Below are positions 2,887-20,935 of a stretch of DNA of 37,282 bases, one piece after another. A program made the translations under genes and the position numbers. Each line of letters begins with the position of its first letter. The stretch's first letter is position 1. Under the pieces are notes generated by a model that was not told the origin of the DNA, did not search any database, and saw only the letters and a program-made list of their open reading frames with translations. The DNA comes from Candidatus Hodarchaeaceae archaeon (lineage in GTDB: Archaea; Hadarchaeota; Hadarchaeia; Hadarchaeales; Hadarchaeaceae), in NCBI GenBank assembly GCA_030018135.1, contig JASEGJ010000010.1, forward strand, positions 1 through 37,282, read 5' to 3'.

Positions 2887-5001
2887 TTACTCAATGGCCT
2901 CCTTAACGGCGTAAATTCTCGCGTGCAATTTGCCTTCAAGTTTGTACAGTTTGGCGGCGGCCTTGAACCTGCTTCCCTTCTTGATCAGTTGCCTAGGTCC
3001 ATCGTACTCGTTCGGCATCAACACTAAGTGCCATTTGTCGTCAACAGATAAAATAGCCTTCCCAGGCAGGATCCTTTCGACTTCAAAAGTGTGGATCTCT
3101 CGGGGTCTATGCCTGGCAACTTCTACTTCCGCCGGATAAATCCTCTCGCCCACCCTCCTGACTTGATCCTCGTCGTGGAGCCTATCCAACGCTGCCCCTA
3201 CCGCACCCGGGCTGATGCCCTCGGCCTCTAGCTCTGCGCTCAGCTCCGCGACGGGAACACCTTCACGTCCAGCTCTGAGTGTCCGCATCAGGATGAGCTT
3301 GGCCACCTCTTTCACCTCCCTATTGAACCACTTCAACCGCTCCTTCTCCAAGGATTCCAGTTCCAGTTCGATTGAAACCTCGGGTGCTCGACCTTCAATT
3401 GGCGCGTACTCCTCGGCTTCAGAAATCACCTCCATCGACATGGGGCTTTCCTTCGGGGCAGGGCCAAATCGTGCGATAGGCTCGAGCTCAAAATTCAAGC
3501 TCTTCACTAAGGACTTCATCCGCTCCGCCATTTTCGTGCTCGCCCTGAGGTAGCTCACGTCAAGCGTCCCCTCGGTAGCTAGGATCACAACCCTACCGAA
3601 CCTCCTCCTTCCGGTCCTTCCCTTCCTCTGGATGTATCTGATCTCACTCGGGACTGGCTCGTAAAAGACGACCAAGTCTACGCTCGGGACATCGAGCCCT
3701 TCCTCGCCTATGCTCGTCGCCACAAGCACCTTTAACTCTCCTTTCCTGAATTTTTCGAGCAGGAAAGCTTGCCGCTCTTGGCTCATCCCGGTGTCCCCAG
3801 CCCTATCAGCCTGCCCGATGAATCTGGCGGAACTTATCCCGACCTCGGAAAGCCTCGAAACCAAGTGAGAGGATGTATCCCTATATTGGGTGAAGACGAT
3901 TATATTCGAGGACGGCTTTCCCGAAAGTTGCCCCAGCAAGATGCGCTCTAGGGCATTTACCTTCGGATGCTCTTCCAAAGAATCTAGGATTTCGTAAACC
4001 CTTCTAAAAGTCAGACCGGAGGCAATTGCTCTGTGGCTAAGCTTTTCGCTTTGCTTAACACGCTCCAGGAAACATTTGAGCGCGTATGCGCCCTGGCTTT
4101 CCAATAGCTCTAGTGCATGAAAGAGCGTAAGCGCAGTGGATTGCAGGGCGACGATGCTATAGAGCCGCCTTCGCTCTTCTTCCAGTGGTGTTTCTTCTAT
4201 TCTATATCTCAGCTCGTCTCCGAGTTTGAGCAGATCGGTTCTGAATACGTACTTCGGATCCTTTTTGATGACGCCAATCGAAGACAATTTCTGAAGTCTT
4301 TCTTCCAGCATTCCCCTCAAGATTTCCCTCGGTTTCCGGTAGGATTCCGGCAACCGCACGAGCTTCCAATCCATCGCAATTGGACTTATATAGGGCCTGA
4401 CATCTGGATCCTCTTCGGTCCTAGTCTCCACGTGTTCGATGTGAAGAGCCTTGCATAACTCCACGATCTTCTTCCGATCTGCCCTTGGGCTAGCAGTCAG
4501 ACCCAAGATTATCGGGTAAGGCGCCTCGTTCAAGTAGGCCTCCGCCACTCGGGTGTAAGCATAATTCTTCCTTGCCCTATGGCACTCGTCGAAAACGAGC
4601 AGGCTAAAGTTTCTCAATTTAAGCCCGAGCCTGCAATCGTTCTGGACGACCTGGGGAGTCGCGAAGTAAATACGGGCCGAGCCTTTCCAAGCGTGAAGCC
4701 TATAGCTAGGTGCGTATTTCCCAGTTAAAACTTGCACATCTTGGGGGCGGAGCTTGAGGAACCTCATGAAAGTATCCCTGTGCTGCAGGACGAGAGGCCT
4801 AGTTGGAGCCATGACCAAGACTTTCATGTTGCTGTAATTGTAGAGAAAGTGAGATGCGACTAAGGACGCTATGACAGTCTTTCCGAGCGCGGTAGGTAGT
4901 ACGACCAGCGTATTCCTCTTTATAGCCTCCCCAGCAACCGCAAGCTGATAGACCCTTTGCTCAAAGGCTCTTTCCCTCACCAGCGGATTTATCGGTAGCA
5001 T
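2887..5001 (-). CDS. Hef/FANCM(Mph1)-type DExH helicase without an ERCC4 nuclease domain; C-terminal wHTH- and OB-like segments
   Basis: PTALGKT, PTRPLVLQH, ATPQ, DECH, TASP, RFIGQA, ATSIGEEGLD, YEPVPSEIRYIQRKGRTGR. Confidence 0.9.
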   Translation of the reverse strand: MLPINPLVRERAFEQRVYQLAVAGEAIKRNTLVVLPTALGKTVIASLVASHFLYNYSNMKVLVMAPTRPLVLQHRDTFMRFLKLRPQDVQVLTGKYAPSYRLHAWKGSARIYFATPQVVQNDCRLGLKLRNFSLLVFDECHRARKNYAYTRVAEAYLNEAPYPIILGLTASPRADRKKIVELCKALHIEHVETRTEEDPDVRPYISPIAMDWKLVRLPESYRKPREILRGMLEERLQKLSSIGVIKKDPKYVFRTDLLKLGDELRYRIEETPLEEERRRLYSIVALQSTALTLFHALELLESQGAYALKCFLERVKQSEKLSHRAIASGLTFRRVYEILDSLEEHPKVNALERILLGQLSGKPSSNIIVFTQYRDTSSHLVSRLSEVGISSARFIGQADRAGDTGMSQERQAFLLEKFRKGELKVLVATSIGEEGLDVPSVDLVVFYEPVPSEIRYIQRKGRTGRRRFGRVVILATEGTLDVSYLRASTKMAERMKSLVKSLNFELEPIARFGPAPKESPMSMEVISEAEEYAPIEGRAPEVSIELELESLEKERLKWFNREVKEVAKLILMRTLRAGREGVPVAELSAELEAEGISPGAVGAALDRLHDEDQVRRVGERIYPAEVEVARHRPREIHTFEVERILPGKAILSVDDKWHLVLMPNEYDGPRQLIKKGSRFKAAAKLYKLEGKLHARIYAVKEAIE

Positions 5002-5085
5002 AGAGACGTTCCAATCTCGCTTCCGATCGATCGCCTTAAACTACTATCCCACAGAGGTGACCGAAAGTAATGCCCTTCAGGTAGC

Positions 5086-5424
5086 TTAGATCTCTATGAC
5101 TTCTGCTTTCTTTTTTAGCTTCGGTTTTTCTGCAGTTGGCGGATTGATCTCATCTATACTACTCATGAGTTTTTCGAGCCTTTCCTCAGCCAACAAATTC
5201 TTGAACTCCTTGAGTTCCAAGAGGTTTCTGACAACCAAACCTCTCTTTTTTGTCGGGTTGCCGGACGCGTCTACTGGGTTTATCTCAACACAGAGCCTTT
5301 GTGGGTATCTTTTGTAAGTGGGAAGCTTGAGAATAAACATACCGGGGACGCTCGTCGGTCTCCTCTCCCATTCCTTTCCCTTTTCCAAAAACAGCTTCAG
5401 GGATTCCGCGAGTTTTTCACCCAT
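5086..5424 (-). CDS. Hypothetical basic protein (112 aa)
   Basis: Clean ORF with protein-like composition, co-oriented upstream of the helicase. Confidence 0.75.
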   Translation of the reverse strand: MGEKLAESLKLFLEKGKEWERRPTSVPGMFILKLPTYKRYPQRLCVEINPVDASGNPTKKRGLVVRNLLELKEFKNLLAEERLEKLMSSIDEINPPTAEKPKLKKKAEVIEI

Positions 5425-14594: not shown

Positions 14595-16400
14595 TCACGC
14601 GTACTTGCTCAACCCGAGTTCCTTAAGCTTCTCCGGCGTCGGCCTCCCGTCCTTCCATCCTCGCAATTTGTAGTACTCGTCGAGCATCGCGTCGAGCTTT
14701 ACCACATGTCCCTTTGCCGGACCTTCGGGCATTGGCTCCTTCAGGAGCCTTGAGGGTAGCGTGTCGTGTTCGCGCCCGAAGCCCTCGCGGTTTATGAAGA
14801 GCCGCTCGAGGTTGTAGATCCGCTCGCCCGCCTTCAGCAGGTCGTCGGCCGACCAATTCCAGCCAGCGATGGCGTTGAGGAGTTCGGCGATCTCCGGTGC
14901 ACCGAACGCGAAGGTCAGGAACTTGCAAACGACTGCCGAGTCGCAAACCGCGAAGAGATCTTGGAAGGTCTTCACCCACCGCGCCTTGCCATCGGTCGCG
15001 AACCCATCGAGGCGCTCGGGGATGCCCAAGATTTCCGGCGCGATCATGTAGGCCCGCAAGTGACAGCCGCCCCGGTTGCTGGTCGCATAGCCAAGCCCAT
15101 GGCCTTGTACCCCGCGGGGGTCGTAAGCAGGCAACTCCAGTCCCTTGACATGCATCGCGAGCTCGGGCACGCCATATTTCTCCGCCAGCCTCTTAGCGCC
15201 CAGCGCGATATCGTCTCCGAAGCCGACGCGATAGGCGGTTCTCCAGGCGAGTTCGACAATCACCTGGGGGTTGCCGAACCTGAGTTCAAGCCCTCCAAGC
15301 CTCTCCTTTGAGATCTTGCCCCTCTCGTACAGCTCCATCGCGCAGCCCACGGTATTGCCGTAGGAGATCGGGTCGATGCCCAGCTCATCGCACAGGTTAT
15401 GCGCTTTGGTTATGGCATTGAGGTCGTCGATGCCGCAGTTTGCGCCCAACGACCAATCCGTCTCGTACTCCGGCCCCTCGCCCTCGACTTGGTACGGCGG
15501 TTGGGTCACCCGAGTAACCCTACCACAGGCTATCGGACAGCCCCAACAAGCCTTGTTTTTGACGAGGATCGTCTTGGCGATGGTCTCGCCGCTCGTCTTG
15601 TCCGCGGTCGGAAAAGTGCCCGTCTGGAAGTTGCGCGTCGGGTAGATGCCGTGCTCGTTGATGATGTTCACAAGCACGGCGGTGCCGTAGGTGGGCAACG
15701 CTTGACCGGTTACGCCGCTATCCTTGATCATCTTCAGCACCTTCGCCACGGCTTCCCTGAGCTTTCCCTCATCAGCGATAGGAGGCTTTTTGGTCCCCCG
15801 CACCGCGACCGCCTTCAGGCGCTTGGAGCCCATCACCGCGCCAGCTGCGGTTCTGCCGGCCGCGCGGTGCTTGTCGTTGATGATCGCGGCGCACATCGCG
15901 AGGTTCTCGCCGGCGGGTCCAATCGATGCGACCTTGATTTGAGAGTCGCCGAGTTCCCTCCTGATGTCGTCCTCGGTGTCCCAGGTGCCCTTGCCCCAAT
16001 AGCGCTTCGCAGGCTTGAGTTCCGCCTCGCCATTATGGAGCCACAGGTAAACTGGCTCGCTTGCCCTGCCCTCCAGTATTATGCCCTCGTAGCCCGCGAA
16101 TCTCAGCTCGGGGCCGAAATCCCCGCCGCAGTTGGTGTCGCCTATACCGCCGGTCAGGGGCGACTTGGTGATCACGTGAAACCTGCCGCTCGCGGGAAAT
16201 GCCGTTCCCGTGGCCGGACCGACCATGAAAAGCAGCTTGTTTTCTGGCCCCAGGGGGTCTACGCCCGGTTTGAACTCGTCCATGAGTAACTTCACGCCCA
16301 AGCCGCGCCCACCCATGAATTTCTCGACATCCTCGTCATCGACCATTTCGTCCCTCATGGAGCCCGACGAAAGGTCGACTCGGAGCAATTTCAATTTCAT
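14595..16400 (-). CDS. aor: Tungsten aldehyde:ferredoxin oxidoreductase
   Basis: KSPLTG, IGPAGEN, AAGR..GAVMGSKRLKA, CWGCPIACGR, GPEYET, DELGID, NRGGCH, YYKLRGW. Confidence 0.95.
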   Translation of the reverse strand: MKLKLLRVDLSSGSMRDEMVDDEDVEKFMGGRGLGVKLLMDEFKPGVDPLGPENKLLFMVGPATGTAFPASGRFHVITKSPLTGGIGDTNCGGDFGPELRFAGYEGIILEGRASEPVYLWLHNGEAELKPAKRYWGKGTWDTEDDIRRELGDSQIKVASIGPAGENLAMCAAIINDKHRAAGRTAAGAVMGSKRLKAVAVRGTKKPPIADEGKLREAVAKVLKMIKDSGVTGQALPTYGTAVLVNIINEHGIYPTRNFQTGTFPTADKTSGETIAKTILVKNKACWGCPIACGRVTRVTQPPYQVEGEGPEYETDWSLGANCGIDDLNAITKAHNLCDELGIDPISYGNTVGCAMELYERGKISKERLGGLELRFGNPQVIVELAWRTAYRVGFGDDIALGAKRLAEKYGVPELAMHVKGLELPAYDPRGVQGHGLGYATSNRGGCHLRAYMIAPEILGIPERLDGFATDGKARWVKTFQDLFAVCDSAVVCKFLTFAFGAPEIAELLNAIAGWNWSADDLLKAGERIYNLERLFINREGFGREHDTLPSRLLKEPMPEGPAKGHVVKLDAMLDEYYKLRGWKDGRPTPEKLKELGLSKYA

Positions 16401-16572
16401 CTCCAGTCCTCCAACGGTTCAATAACGCTTACTGGTTTAAGTAAGTTTTGAAGTTAGGGCAGTCAGTTATAAACAATTCAGCAACCAAAATCATTTGGAA
16501 ATGTAGAGTAAAGTTCGGATGACCTTAGCACTAGCGAGCTATTTAATCGTGGGGAATCAAAACTTAAAGGGT

Positions 16573-16707
16573 AGCCCCGTGGGGTAGACCAGTAAAGCTG
16601 GGCCTAATGGTCAGGGTTCAAAGCCCCCATAAAAGCCTTCGGGCCTTTGGAGCCCGTGACCCCGGTTCGAAATCGGCCAGCCGACGAAGTTCCGGGCGGG
16701 GCTACCA
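16573..16707 (+). tRNA. tRNA-Gln(UUG) with three non-canonical introns: 16588-16607 (15/16), 16613-16632 (D-loop ~20a/20b), 16672-16690 (58/59); CCA encoded
   Basis: Removing the three BHB-bounded segments gives a 76-nt cloverleaf: AGCCCCG/CGGGGCT acceptor, CGGGC-CT-TTG-GA-GCCCG anticodon arm, CCCGG-TTCGAAT-CCGGG T arm. Confidence 0.92.
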
Positions 16708-16903
16708 TTTTTGTTAAGTAGTCTTGAGAAGTCGGATCGCCGAAGGACGTGGGGCAATTATCGCTTTTTAGCCGCTTTATTGCCTCCTTAAGGGCGTTTT
16801 CCGCGACCCGTGAAATGTTCAGGCCCGCATCCTTCGCTTCCTTCAAGATAGCAGGATCAAGGGTGATTGCGGTTATCTGGCGCTTTCGGTTTGGTCCCTT
16901 CAT
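16604..16903 (-). CDS. int(N): CcdA/ribbon-helix-helix-like N-terminal integrase fragment reading antisense into the tRNA
   Basis: TAITLDPAILKEAKDAGLNISRVAENALKEAI is CcdA-like; continues MVAPPG...RTGVTGSKG, in register with RTGVAGSKG of int(C). Confidence 0.8.
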   Translation of the reverse strand: MKGPNRKRQITAITLDPAILKEAKDAGLNISRVAENALKEAIKRLKSDNCPTSFGDPTSQDYLTKMVAPPGTSSAGRFRTGVTGSKGPKAFMGALNPDH

Positions 16904-17197
16904 GTATATACACTCCTATGCACTCTCAGCCTCTTCAAGCACTTCTTTCAATCTCCTAGATATAATCCCCTTGATGTTTTCCATACTCTGCTCCTCCGCG
17001 AGGCGGCAAAGTTGTTCTATTCGCTCAGGAGACAACTTGCGGCCCCGCCCTCGCCTGCTCGATGCTGCACACTATTAAAAACCACTTTGCCAACCGAGAC
17101 AGTGCATCGCCCATATTAAACCACGCGACATAAAAACTCGGCGCGATCTTTTTTTAGATTTTTAAGGAAATAAAAAAAGAGAGTTTGGGGCCCTAGG

Positions 17198-17674
17198 ATG
17201 GACTGGAGAGAATTTCTTCCTGTACATGAGTATAAAGCGTGGGTCGAAGACGCTCGAGATAAATTGGAGGAAGCGAAGAAGGATCTAGATGACTTTCCTT
17301 TTAGTGCCTTTCAACGGGCCCATGAATCTGCCGAATTTTTATTAAAAGCCGTTTTGGTCCGTGCGGGCAAATTCGGTAGAAAAAATCGAATCCACCAATT
17401 ACCACCGCTTCTGGATAAGATAGATCGCGAAAAATGCCTTCCACCCGGAGCGATTACTAAAGCACGAGAAATTGTGCCAGAACTCGAGATTATAAATGTG
17501 GGCGGCCCGCGACCAGCCCCTACGCATGTCGACTCCATTACATACACAGCCGAGGTTGAATATCCGAAGGCAGGAATGTCTTCTACCGATCGAATATCAA
17601 AGGAAATGGCTGAGGAAAAAATATGTTTGTCACAACAACTGCTTGAATTATTACTTCCTTATTTGGACTGTTAA
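17198..17674 (+). CDS. HEPN-domain protein (cargo)
   Basis: W..ARDKLEEAK...SAFQRAHESAEFLLKAVL...IHQLPPLL HEPN pattern; lower GC than the flanks. Confidence 0.75.
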   Translation: MDWREFLPVHEYKAWVEDARDKLEEAKKDLDDFPFSAFQRAHESAEFLLKAVLVRAGKFGRKNRIHQLPPLLDKIDREKCLPPGAITKAREIVPELEIINVGGPRPAPTHVDSITYTAEVEYPKAGMSSTDRISKEMAEEKICLSQQLLELLLPYLDC

Positions 17675-17684
17675 ATTGGCGCTG

Positions 17685-17969
17685 TTAACTTTTCTTTTTC
17701 CTCAACAATCTTCTTATTTGCTCTTCCTGTCTATTGTACCATTTATCAAAGAGCAGATACCCAAAGGGTAAATGAATGCCAAAGATTCCGAGTCCTCAGA
17801 AAATTAGGGGCCAGTGAAACCATATCTTTTCCGGCACAACTACGAGGTTGTAAACTGGAAAAATAACTGCGTTGAAAACCAAGTATATCACGAGATGGCA
17901 AAGGAAACCTTTTTTTGCTTCTCTCTTTTCCACAACTCTTCTCGCTTCTCTGTAATCCTTCACACTCAT
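17685..17969 (-). pseudogene. 2TM-domain small membrane protein with in-frame TGA at 17796-17798
   Basis: MSVKDYREARRVVEKRSKKGFLCHLVIYLVFN...WFHWPLIF*GLGIFGIHL...; the stop falls at the expected W of WPxxxWG. Confidence 0.7.
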
Positions 17970-18029
17970 TTTTTCACATCCATCGGTGTGATATTGCTTC
18001 CTTAAAAGGTTGATGGAGGTATTAAGTTA

Positions 18030-18213
18030 ACACCTATGTGAATCGCGAGGTTTTTTATTCATTTCGGTTTTCTCACTATCACCTCATCGGTTTTGGGCAT
18101 GATTGCATACACCTATCCGCGGTCTTTCGCCGCAATATAGTTTTTCGCTCGGGGCCCTCAATCAAACCCACGCGGTCAAAGCCGCAATTGAATTCCCGAG
18201 GTGCCCCTGCCCC
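18030..18213 (-). mobile_element. Transposase-less IS110 derivative (MITE-like) carrying a bridge-RNA copy
   Basis: Reverse complement aligns with 667-854; stems conserved, changes mostly in loops; terminus ATAGGTGT (18030-18037) matches its internal guide (18109-18116). Confidence 0.8.
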
Positions 18214-18255
18214 TTTTGTTTCTCCCTTTGATGGTTGTGGGAGCATGATATTCAC

Positions 18256-18285
18256 CCGCCTCTCATCGAATAGTTTGAGAGGCGG
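18256..18285. terminator. Perfect 10-bp hairpin downstream of int(C)
   Basis: CCGCCTCTCA-TCGAATAGTT-TGAGAGGCGG. Confidence 0.45.
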
Positions 18286-18331
18286 ATCCCTTAAAGCCGA
18301 GCGATTCATCATCCTATCAGCACCGTTAAAT

Positions 18332-19159
18332 TTACGAGAGAACTTTTAACCCCGCGCCATCGTATATCCTCTTTAACCGTTCGGGAGAGAAGTCCGTGTA
18401 ATGCCTCGCCAGCACGCTCCTCGGAACCCGCCCACAGAAGGCATCGACGTATCTGTCTGCAACGCCCAACTCGCCCATCTCGGAGCAGAACCAGTCGCGC
18501 AAAATCTGGGGCGTGATCTTAACGCCCGATGCCTCGCTCGCCCGCTTGAACCACCTATCAATTCGACTACTCCGCCACGGAAAGAGCCTTTGGTCGGCGC
18601 TCACGTCCCGCCCGTTGAGGTATTCTCTCAGCGCTTGCTCCGCTTCTCGGTTGAAAAATGACGCCCATCTTTTCTTTGTTATTGTGCTTGTTACGTTTGG
18701 CAGCACCATTCTCTTGTCAAGGTCGATGTCGCCTATCTTGAGCGATGCGACCTCATCTCGCCTAAGCCCCGATGTGGCGAGCATCAGGAACACCGCACGT
18801 TCAAATGGCCTTTTGAGCGCTTCGTAAAATCGCTTCAACTCTTCCTTGGTCGGCACCCTTTTCGGCTTGAACTCTTGGCGCGGTAATTTGAACGTCGCCA
18901 CTATTTCGCCTCTGCCCAAGAAGTCGCGGAAAAATCTTCTAAATGCTTTAAGAATGTTGGCGCGAGTCGAGGCGCTTGAATCCTTAAAGCCCGCGAGATA
19001 ATCTCTAATAACATCGGTCGAAACTTCAGCGCCGTTTAACCATCTCAAGAATCGTTTAATTTCACGACAATGATCTTGGGCGGTGGCCTCGGACAGCGAT
19101 AGGTCGATCGTGCAAAATTTCTTGAACTTCTCCAAAACATCAGGATCGAACGTTATGCC
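18332..19159 (-). CDS. int(C): SSV-type tyrosine recombinase, catalytic fragment
   Basis: TSGLRRDE, ITPQILRDWF, FCGRVPRSVLARHYTD; the reading frame runs out of attR. Confidence 0.92.
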   Translation of the reverse strand, partial: GITFDPDVLEKFKKFCTIDLSLSEATAQDHCREIKRFLRWLNGAEVSTDVIRDYLAGFKDSSASTRANILKAFRRFFRDFLGRGEIVATFKLPRQEFKPKRVPTKEELKRFYEALKRPFERAVFLMLATSGLRRDEVASLKIGDIDLDKRMVLPNVTSTITKKRWASFFNREAEQALREYLNGRDVSADQRLFPWRSSRIDRWFKRASEASGVKITPQILRDWFCSEMGELGVADRYVDAFCGRVPRSVLARHYTDFSPERLKRIYDGAGLKVLS

Positions 19160-19200
19160 TTTGGAGCCCGCGACGCCGGTTCGAATCCGGCCGGGGCTAC
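19157..19200 (+). repeat. attR: intron-less 3' half of tRNA-Gln(UUG)
   Basis: GCCTTTGGAGCCCGCGACGCCGGTTCGAATCCGGCCGGGGCTAC. Confidence 0.92.
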
Positions 19201-19267
19201 TAAATTTTAGGAAAAGTCGCATTTTTTTCGCCGCACGTAAGCTTAATATCGGCGATGCGCAAGTAAA

Positions 19268-19492
19268 ATGAGGCGAGGGCTCATGGCCGTGGTTGAAAGG
19301 GGGTTAAGGAAGGTAGGGATAACGGTTTCCAAGCCGGTCTTGGCCACGACGTGCATCATCTTCGGGCTGCTGGTCATAATTTTTTCAGAACTCCTCCAGT
19401 GGATAGTCGGATTGTTCCTGATAACCCAGGGAATGCTCATATTGGCCGACTACATGAAACTCAAGAGGCACCAAGCACGCCTAACAGGCTGA
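19268..19492 (+). CDS. Small two-TM membrane protein (DUF3096-like)
   Basis: IIFGLLVIIFSELLQWIVGLFLITQG. Confidence 0.65.
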   Translation: MRRGLMAVVERGLRKVGITVSKPVLATTCIIFGLLVIIFSELLQWIVGLFLITQGMLILADYMKLKRHQARLTG

Positions 19493-20804: not shown

Positions 20805-20935
20805 AGCCCCGTGGGGTAGACCAGTAAAGCTGGGCCCAATGGTCAATCCTGGCGGACGCTTCACAAGGCCGCAATCTGGATCCGTCGACCCCGGTTCGAA
20901 ATCGCCCCGCGACGAAGTTCCGGGCGGGGCTACCA
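20805..20935 (+). tRNA. tRNA-Gln(CUG) with three non-canonical introns: 20820-20839 (15/16), 20858-20874 (32/33), 20901-20918 (58/59); CCA encoded
   Basis: Spliced product is a 76-nt cloverleaf with anticodon arm GCGGA-CT-CTG-GA-TCCGT; each intron has a BHB-like junction. Confidence 0.92.

Follow-up and report, generated by a model that had tools for sequence, protein, structure and literature searches.

A small integrative element with a self-splitting integrase as the probable source of a T-loop intron in a Hadarchaeota tRNA-Gln(UUG) gene

Introduction

The window analysed here is a 37,282-nucleotide stretch (positions 1 to 37,282, forward strand) of contig JASEGJ010000010.1 from Candidatus Hodarchaeaceae archaeon (Hadarchaeota; assembly GCA_030018135.1, 1.1 Mb in 45 contigs, labelled G000 in genome comparisons). 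It carries a tRNA-Gln(UUG) gene with three introns, followed by a tiny stretch of ~2.5 kb (2,514 bp) without replication genes, at the far end of which a second copy of the tRNA 3′ half is found. This stretch is an integrative element or a remnant of one, and we consider it probable that it delivered an intron-bearing 3′ half into tRNA-Gln(UUG), displacing the resident half to its far end, attR. Delivery of the intron by the element had been proposed in the preliminary description of the window and gained support here from two sides, the empty and intron-less site in a sister genus and the 361-aa reading frame that is obtained when the two pieces of the element's integrase are joined at the attachment core.

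The origin of the non-canonical introns of archaeal tRNA genes, and of the differences in intron content between close relatives, is the open question addressed by this locus. The delivery mechanism as such has already been proposed by Sugahara et al. (2012), whose model, in the accessible text of their study, is recombination between an attP with an intron and an attB without one in the tRNA-Thr(GGU) gene of Caldiarchaeum subterraneum (PMC3293823), and the proposal reappears in the accessible part of a 2021 review of archaeal tyrosine recombinases (PMC8371274). The present locus adds a variant and not a new principle. In the searchable literature, the carriage of an intron by an attachment site has so far rested on that one population study, and a literature search on bulge-helix-bulge (BHB) introns, integrase and attP returned PMC3293823 as the only relevant match; the supplementary tables of Krupovic 2019 and Badel 2020 might hold similar cases. 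The locus would represent a second and anatomically cleaner case, in which the displaced half is unchanged, the empty site is preserved in a sister genus and the integrase frame serves as an internal check, and thereby a clean, testable natural example of attP-borne intron delivery.

Results

The two copies of the 3′ half of tRNA-Gln(UUG) were recovered with a repeat finder as attL (16643-16707) and attR (19157-19200), the starts of which are 2514 bp apart. An exact block of 14 bp (16643-16656 and 19157-19170) spans the anticodon loop CTTTGGA. Beyond this core, on its right side, the copies differ at position 44 (T16657 in attL, C19171 in attR), in the pair 49-65, which shows a compensatory exchange (C16661/G16696 in the live gene versus G19175/C19191 in attR), and at the 3′ end, where attR reads CTA and the live gene CCA. 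In addition, 19 nt are inserted in attL only (16672-16690, or 16671-16689 depending on the cleavage register), and attR lacks precisely these. The intron asymmetry and the exchanged T-stem pair had been noted in the preliminary description, and both were confirmed by direct reading and by the repeat finder. A whole-genome search yielded three matches only, the UUG gene, attR (E 5.5e-7) and tRNA-Gln(CUG) (20805-20935); attR is thus not a chance match. A second copy of the UUG isoacceptor gene was not found in the assembly by this search.

Events of this kind are invisible to standard annotation. In the raw window no tRNA was called by ARAGORN or by a gathering-threshold scan with Rfam, and both glutamine tRNAs were missed because of their multiple introns and not because the genes are absent. 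After removal of the three candidate introns by script, ARAGORN called a 75-nt tRNA-Gln(ttg).

By its layout, the T-loop insertion is a BHB intron. The T arm can be arranged as hBHBh′, with an outer helix CCCGG/CCGGG, a 4-bp helix TTCG/CGAA, 3-nt bulges AAA and GTT on opposite strands and an inner hairpin TCGGC/GCCGA. The same layout is common to 16 distinct T-loop intron sequences of relatives, the inner stems of which covary (for example TCGAC/GTCGA, TCGC/GCGA and TTGGC/GCCGA). An unconstrained minimum free energy fold of the T arm recovered the outer and inner helices and only 1 bp of the weak 4-bp central helix. The position of the cut within the bulges sets the product, which would be TTCGAAT for cleavage at 59/60 or TTCGATT at 58/59. 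The host can presumably splice this intron, since its tRNA-Gln(CUG) gene has an intron of this kind in the corresponding position and one gene for an EndA-type endonuclease (EndA domain) is present in the genome, at C33:17452-17709. That the 3′ ends of the two glutamine tRNAs are nearly identical, as stated in the preliminary description, holds for the exons, which are the same from position 45; the T-loop introns are located at the same place and differ in their hairpin and length (19 nt in UUG versus 18 nt in CUG).

To place the two halves in the history of the lineage, the locus was compared with genomes of relatives. Relatedness was measured by EF-2 and AFOR identity, and the designation of genus g4 (G003 and G013) as the sister genus is based on these two proteins alone. 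The helicase encoded at 2887-5001 proved to be a poor marker, being absent from genera g7 and g3, and EF-2 was used in its place. The g4 genomes are the nearest by EF-2 (89% and 88% identical, all others ≤83%), and their AFOR is 89-90% identical. Their gene order is kept, with AFOR, tRNA-Gln(UUG), a 74-aa open reading frame (ORF), a Lon-like gene, a 150-aa membrane ORF and tRNA-Gln(CUG), and in both genomes nothing is inserted after the UUG gene. The 3′ half of the g4 UUG gene is intron-less, carries G49-C65 and is identical to attR in 44 of 44 positions. The alignment extends into the flank: the 360 bp that separate attR from the Lon-like gene are host DNA common to the sister genus, and the 74-aa ORF therein is 71-72% identical. 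The match of attR and its flank to g4 identifies attR as the undisturbed original half of the lineage; it is the 3′ part of the live gene that departs from the allele of the sister genus.

On the opposite strand, the tRNA-derived repeat is part of the integrase reading frame. The ORFs at the two ends of the element, Int(N) and Int(C), both cross the repeat antisense and in the same frame across the core, and on the basis of this arrangement the integrase is assigned to the SSV type, that is, a self-splitting enzyme with attP inside its own gene, which is split on integration. The tRNA target and the antiparallel orientation of int are as in other SSV-type integrases. The T-loop intron is read in frame on the minus strand as part of the integrase linker (ORF 16604..16903); the same stretch serves as tRNA exon plus intron in one orientation and as integrase linker in the opposite one.

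The two pieces were joined in silico at alternative positions. Joining at the 14-bp core gave one open frame of 361 aa, the same length as the unsplit relative P0048, whereas joining to the right of the intron, in a 9-bp block of the acceptor stem, ran into a stop codon at residue 81. As the intron length of 19 nt is not divisible by three, the ribbon-helix-helix (RHH) domain would lose its connection to the remainder of the integrase if attP had no intron. The 361-aa frame is restored only when the crossover lies left of the intron, which argues that the intron was inside the element's attP and integrase gene. For the SSV1 integrase, strand exchange (the overlap region) is placed at the anticodon loop in the accessible part of the 2021 review (PMC8371274); by analogy, the 3′ half of the live gene, beyond the crossover, would come from the element.

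The features of the locus are compiled in Table 1. The PF07362 match of Int(N) is CcdA-like and of the RHH type, and its homologues comprise P0121 (58% identity, E 3e-33) and the N-terminus of the unsplit P0048 (E 1e-11). Int(C) matched PF00589 (E 9.2e-13) and PF16795 (“Archaeal phage integrase”, E 4.5e-9) and has 1060 homologues at E≤1e-5. In the Int(C) alignment the R, K, H and Y columns are conserved, which we take to be the catalytic positions. Neither ORF is coding over its full length: the part of 16604..16903 to the left of 16643 is host DNA that is read through by accident, and the first 22 codons of 18332..19222 are read-through of attR and host flank, so that the true coding part begins from about 19170.

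Table 1: Features of the tRNA-Gln(UUG) locus and of the integrated element (positions in the window).
Feature	Position	Strand	Basis
tRNA-Gln(UUG), encoded CCA, three introns	16573..16707	+	direct reading; ARAGORN after intron removal
Candidate intron 1, D loop, 20 nt, approximate boundaries	16588..16607	+	comparison with intron-less relatives; removal required for ARAGORN call
Candidate intron 2, ~21/22, 21 nt, approximate boundaries	16614..16634	+	comparison with relatives; ARAGORN call
attL core, 14 bp = 19157-19170; anticodon loop and 3′ strand of anticodon stem; presumed crossover region	16643..16656	+	
3′ tRNA part (P′ arm), probably element-derived: T44, C49-G65 T stem, T-loop intron, acceptor 3′ strand, CCA	16657..16707	+	geometry and reading-frame test
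T-loop intron, 19 nt, 59/60 (or 58/59 if cut one base earlier)	16672..16690	+	hBHBh′ layout
Int(N), N-terminal integrase piece, RHH domain and linker antisense through tRNA 3′ half	16604..16903	-	Pfam PF07362, E 3.4e-7
39-aa ORF inside element	16916..17035	-	ORF listing
HEPN-domain protein, element cargo	17198..17674	+	Pfam PF05168, E 1.5e-7
57-aa 2TM-domain membrane protein, element cargo	17796..17969	-	Pfam PF13239, E 5.1e-6
Int(C), 296-aa ORF, core-binding (SAM-like) and catalytic tyrosine integrase domains	18332..19222	-	Pfam PF00589, PF16795, PF13495, PF02899
attR: core and displaced intron-less 3′ half of original tRNA-Gln(UUG), G49-C65	19157..19200	+	sequence repeat, sister-genus match
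tRNA-Gln(CUG), three introns (D loop, anticodon loop, T loop)	20805..20935	+	direct reading, comparison

Unsplit relatives of the integrase are P0048 (361 aa, with an RHH N-terminus), P0113 (381 aa) and P0076 (382 aa), the last of which has an in-frame att of the Gln(UUG) type that lacks the intron, and in many predicted family members the N-terminal peptide is a translation of a tRNA 3′ half read on the reverse strand. In a survey of 80 metagenomic loci with an RHH Int(N), 12 were too near a contig end; 53 of the 68 assessable loci run into the T arm of a tRNA on the opposite strand, which indicates that read-through from the RHH domain into a tRNA is the normal design of this family.

Both integrase pieces are stop-free and attR is undiverged from the sister-genus allele, and the integration is therefore read as recent; the integrase was presumably active at that time. 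The element is probably stuck now. With its integrase gene split it cannot excise by itself, and excision would occur only with help from another copy. The earlier statement that excision would remove the intron again is thus formally right, but self-excision is not to be expected. As to the cargo, no recognisable nucleotidyltransferase partner was seen adjacent to the HEPN gene (17198-17674), the neighbours of which are the 39-aa ORF and the 2TM ORF. A scan for promoters and terminators gave nothing above shuffled sequences.

Discussion

Taken together, the anatomy of the locus argues for the following course of events. An element with an SSV-type integrase would have recombined with tRNA-Gln(UUG) within the 14-bp anticodon-loop block. 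The sequence 3′ of the crossover in the live gene would then be element-derived, as in every tRNA-targeting integration, and the original 3′ half would have been pushed to the far end of the element, where it is now found as attR. Compared with the resident half, the one brought by the element would have had a different T-stem pair and the 19-nt BHB intron in the T loop, which on the opposite strand is ordinary linker coding between the RHH and core-binding domains. The only tRNA-Gln(UUG) gene of the host would thus have gained its third intron.

Several observations weigh against delivery by the element. The predicted protein P0008 starts with Met just after att, and some relatives may start their integrase there, in which case a fused frame may not be needed. 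The crossover position is deduced from the 14-bp identity block together with the frame test, and the placement of the intron in attP is backed solely by the reading-frame argument. The nearest genomes compared belong to a sister genus, the state before integration being reconstructed from attR and these genomes, and no second copy and no free or circular form of the element was found among the genomes of the order or the metagenome contigs; a search for public sequencing runs covering 16400-19400 listed none. Furthermore, intron-bearing alleles occur at a distance. At the empty syntenic site of G054 (genus g7, AFOR 81%), the UUG gene has both C49-G65 and the T-loop intron. One contig of G002 (genus g3) begins within a 3′ half sharing 96% identity with attL, including 18 of 19 intron positions, next to host DNA; since this half adjoins the Lon-like gene, the allele also exists as host DNA. 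About ten more genomes of the family (G014, G006, G044, G046, G047, G048, G053, G057) carry a T-loop intron in UUG together with a different T stem.

The preliminary description had named relatives with an empty site as the comparison to make, an intron-less G49-C65 gene speaking for delivery and a gene with the intron and C49-G65 against it. The former was found in g4, the latter in G054 and probably in G002. What is decisive is the state of the own lineage before integration, which is recorded by attR. Outside the anticodon arm, the UUG and CUG genes of G054 do not differ, D-loop and T-loop introns included (L169 1717-1846 and 3175-3287; G054:C15). This identity points to conversion or duplication between the paralogues, and conversion would explain the intron-bearing UUG gene of that genome. 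The G002 half is followed directly by the host Lon-like gene, at its stop codon, and the bin lacks the 5′ half. The UUG introns of G000 and G002 are nearly identical even though the genomes belong to different genera, while their CUG introns are clearly more diverged, which would fit horizontal movement of the 3′ half.

Three other explanations were weighed. According to the first, the intron is native to the host, the crossover took place at the 3′ end of the tRNA within the 9-bp block CGGGGCTAC, the RHH protein and the integrase are separate genes, and the tRNA-like stretch without intron at attR is part of the element. We consider this improbable. The block CGGGGCTAC is indeed identical in both copies, intron-bearing UUG genes exist as host DNA in other genomes of the family, and separate genes would be in line with the Met start of P0008 after att, with a stand-alone RHH protein of 66 aa (P0123) and with a TTG in frame at codon 30 of Int(C). 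However, a crossover at this place meets the stop at residue 81 and yields an integrase without its N-terminal domain, whereas the unsplit relatives are continuous through att. Moreover, attR and its flank are orthologous to the sister genus, so that an identity of 30 nt would have to be a coincidence, and the exchange of SSV1 maps to the anticodon loop, as given in the available part of the review (PMC8371274).

A second explanation, which had been offered as an alternative in the preliminary description, is that the element brought an intron-less half and that UUG was later converted from tRNA-Gln(CUG), 4 kb away, thereby acquiring the intron and C49-G65. The exons shared from position 45 and the introns at the same place would agree with this, and the identity of UUG and CUG in G054 outside the anticodon arm indicates that such conversion happens in the family. 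Nevertheless, the integrase frame would have been broken before the conversion, and the UUG intron differs from the CUG intron of the same genome in hairpin and length (19 versus 18 nt) and is closer to the UUG intron of G002 (18/19). We therefore regard conversion at this locus as very unlikely. Finally, we give hardly any credence to a serial integration, in which an originally intron-bearing lineage lost its half to an earlier element with an intron-less att, the present element restored it and attR is the half of the earlier element: tandem integrations do occur in the family (three att copies in L086) and the intron-bearing allele exists in other genera, but the sister genus is intron-less at the site, no third copy was found in the genome, a decayed third tRNA-half copy was not seen by the Lon-like gene, and the 360 bp from attR to that gene are host DNA common to the sister genus.

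Delivery by the element can be compared with the case of Sugahara et al. (PMC3293823), as far as it is described in the accessible text. In both, an intron-free tRNA fragment lies beside the element, the rebuilt gene has one extra intron and the recombinase is encoded by the element. In Caldiarchaeum, the recombinase is of the pNOB8 type, is intact and does not overlap the tRNA, a 5′ fragment was displaced, the intron is at 24/25, and the data stem from one population. The present locus differs by an SSV-type, split integrase, by replacement of the 3′ half and by a T-loop intron that is translated in frame; in addition, the empty site was compared with a sister genus and not within the same species.

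The arrangement of the integrase resembles that of the SSV1 and pT26-2 enzymes, for which attP inside int, a tRNA 3′ half antiparallel to int, and N and C pieces left at the ends of the element on integration are described in the parts of PMC8371274 and PMC7253208 that are accessible. Distinctive features of the present integrase are its RHH N-terminal domain, the Hadarchaeota host and the BHB intron in att. In the accessible parts of these two SSV-type accounts (PMC8371274, PMC7253208), introns appear only through the citation of Sugahara et al. and a count of targets, and none is described inside att. Krupovic et al. 2019 reported that 10 of 39 insertions in Thaumarchaeota are in intron-containing tRNA genes (PMC6563490); in the accessible text of that work such targets are counted, and neither an attL/attR asymmetry nor an intron in attP is reported.

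Randau and Soll reportedly put forward the hypothesis that tRNA introns protect genes against integration. The common ground is a link between introns and integrating elements; here, in contrast, the intron lies 3′ of the crossover, would travel with the element and does not block it.

How general such deliveries are was assessed by surveys. In searching 65 genomes of the order with Int(C), integrases were found in 17 (best identity 78%), and in the 16 sequence fragments examined none of these integrases had an intron-bearing piece of a tRNA beside it. Attachment sites were surveyed at 80 loci of the integrase family on genomic contigs, of which 31 had no repeat in reach, 2 were near a contig end and 18 gave repeat rows; dropping L094 as a spurious single 12-mer left 17 pairs. 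An intron-sized gap inside the repeated tRNA part was detected in none of these 17 other att pairs of the family. Likewise, none of the 68 assessable metagenomic RHH loci showed a BHB intron in the T loop (53 have an intron-less T arm downstream, and in 15 none was recognised), and a scan of metagenome contigs for the exact 24-nt sequence of T loop plus intron gave no match. The earlier view of the element as a vehicle for the spread of introns has this one case behind it, with no further example in the att pairs and loci surveyed.

Further arrangements came to light in the att survey. At L086 (~3531, 5009-5108 and 6670; G058:C97), the 3′ half of a single tRNA, which has a long variable arm, occurs three times in succession, and two integrase genes separate the copies. 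From its anticodon loop, CTTGAGA, the tRNA was read as Ser(UGA). The arrangement looks like tandem, serial integration. At five loci (L091, L137, L110, L087 and L124), the direct repeat of att runs 10-50 nt past the 3′ end of the tRNA.

A more far-reaching possibility, which we put forward tentatively and think rather unlikely to hold, is that the intron is more than a passive passenger: small elements with RHH-bearing SSV-type integrases might routinely overwrite the 3′ halves of Hadarchaeota tRNA genes, and the intron may confer target-site immunity on the resident element. If so, routine overwriting would explain the patchwork of T-arm introns among close relatives as well as the transfer of a CUG-type T arm and its intron to tRNA-Gln(UUG) in at least three genera, and the intron, being integrase coding sequence and part of the rebuilt tRNA gene at once, might alter the target for rival Gln-targeting integrases that expect an intron-less T arm (P0076/P0207 type).

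The tRNA-Gln(UUG) gene varies among relatives in other respects as well. In about 25 genomes of the order, the UUG gene has no T-loop intron. The 21-nt candidate intron at ~21/22 (16614-16634) is absent in G003 and G013 and present in the more distant G005, G037, G052 and G014; this distribution implies that the 5′ half of tRNA-Gln(UUG) is also mosaic, for which the element cannot account. On the G002 contig (G002:C28, L170 1-60), the tRNA and the Lon-like gene lie on opposite strands and overlap at their ends, CCA and stop codon respectively, and the contig begins ~54 nt before the tRNA end, as expected if the assembler broke at a repeat of that half. In several g7 genomes and one g11 genome, tRNA-Gln(UUG) apparently possesses four introns, with the D region and the T arm holding two each (L007 1504-1659 in G014:C4, L064, L066, L068-L070, L084). 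Of the T-arm introns, one follows the 5′ strand of the T stem and the other is in the T loop, resulting in a gene of 153-156 nt.

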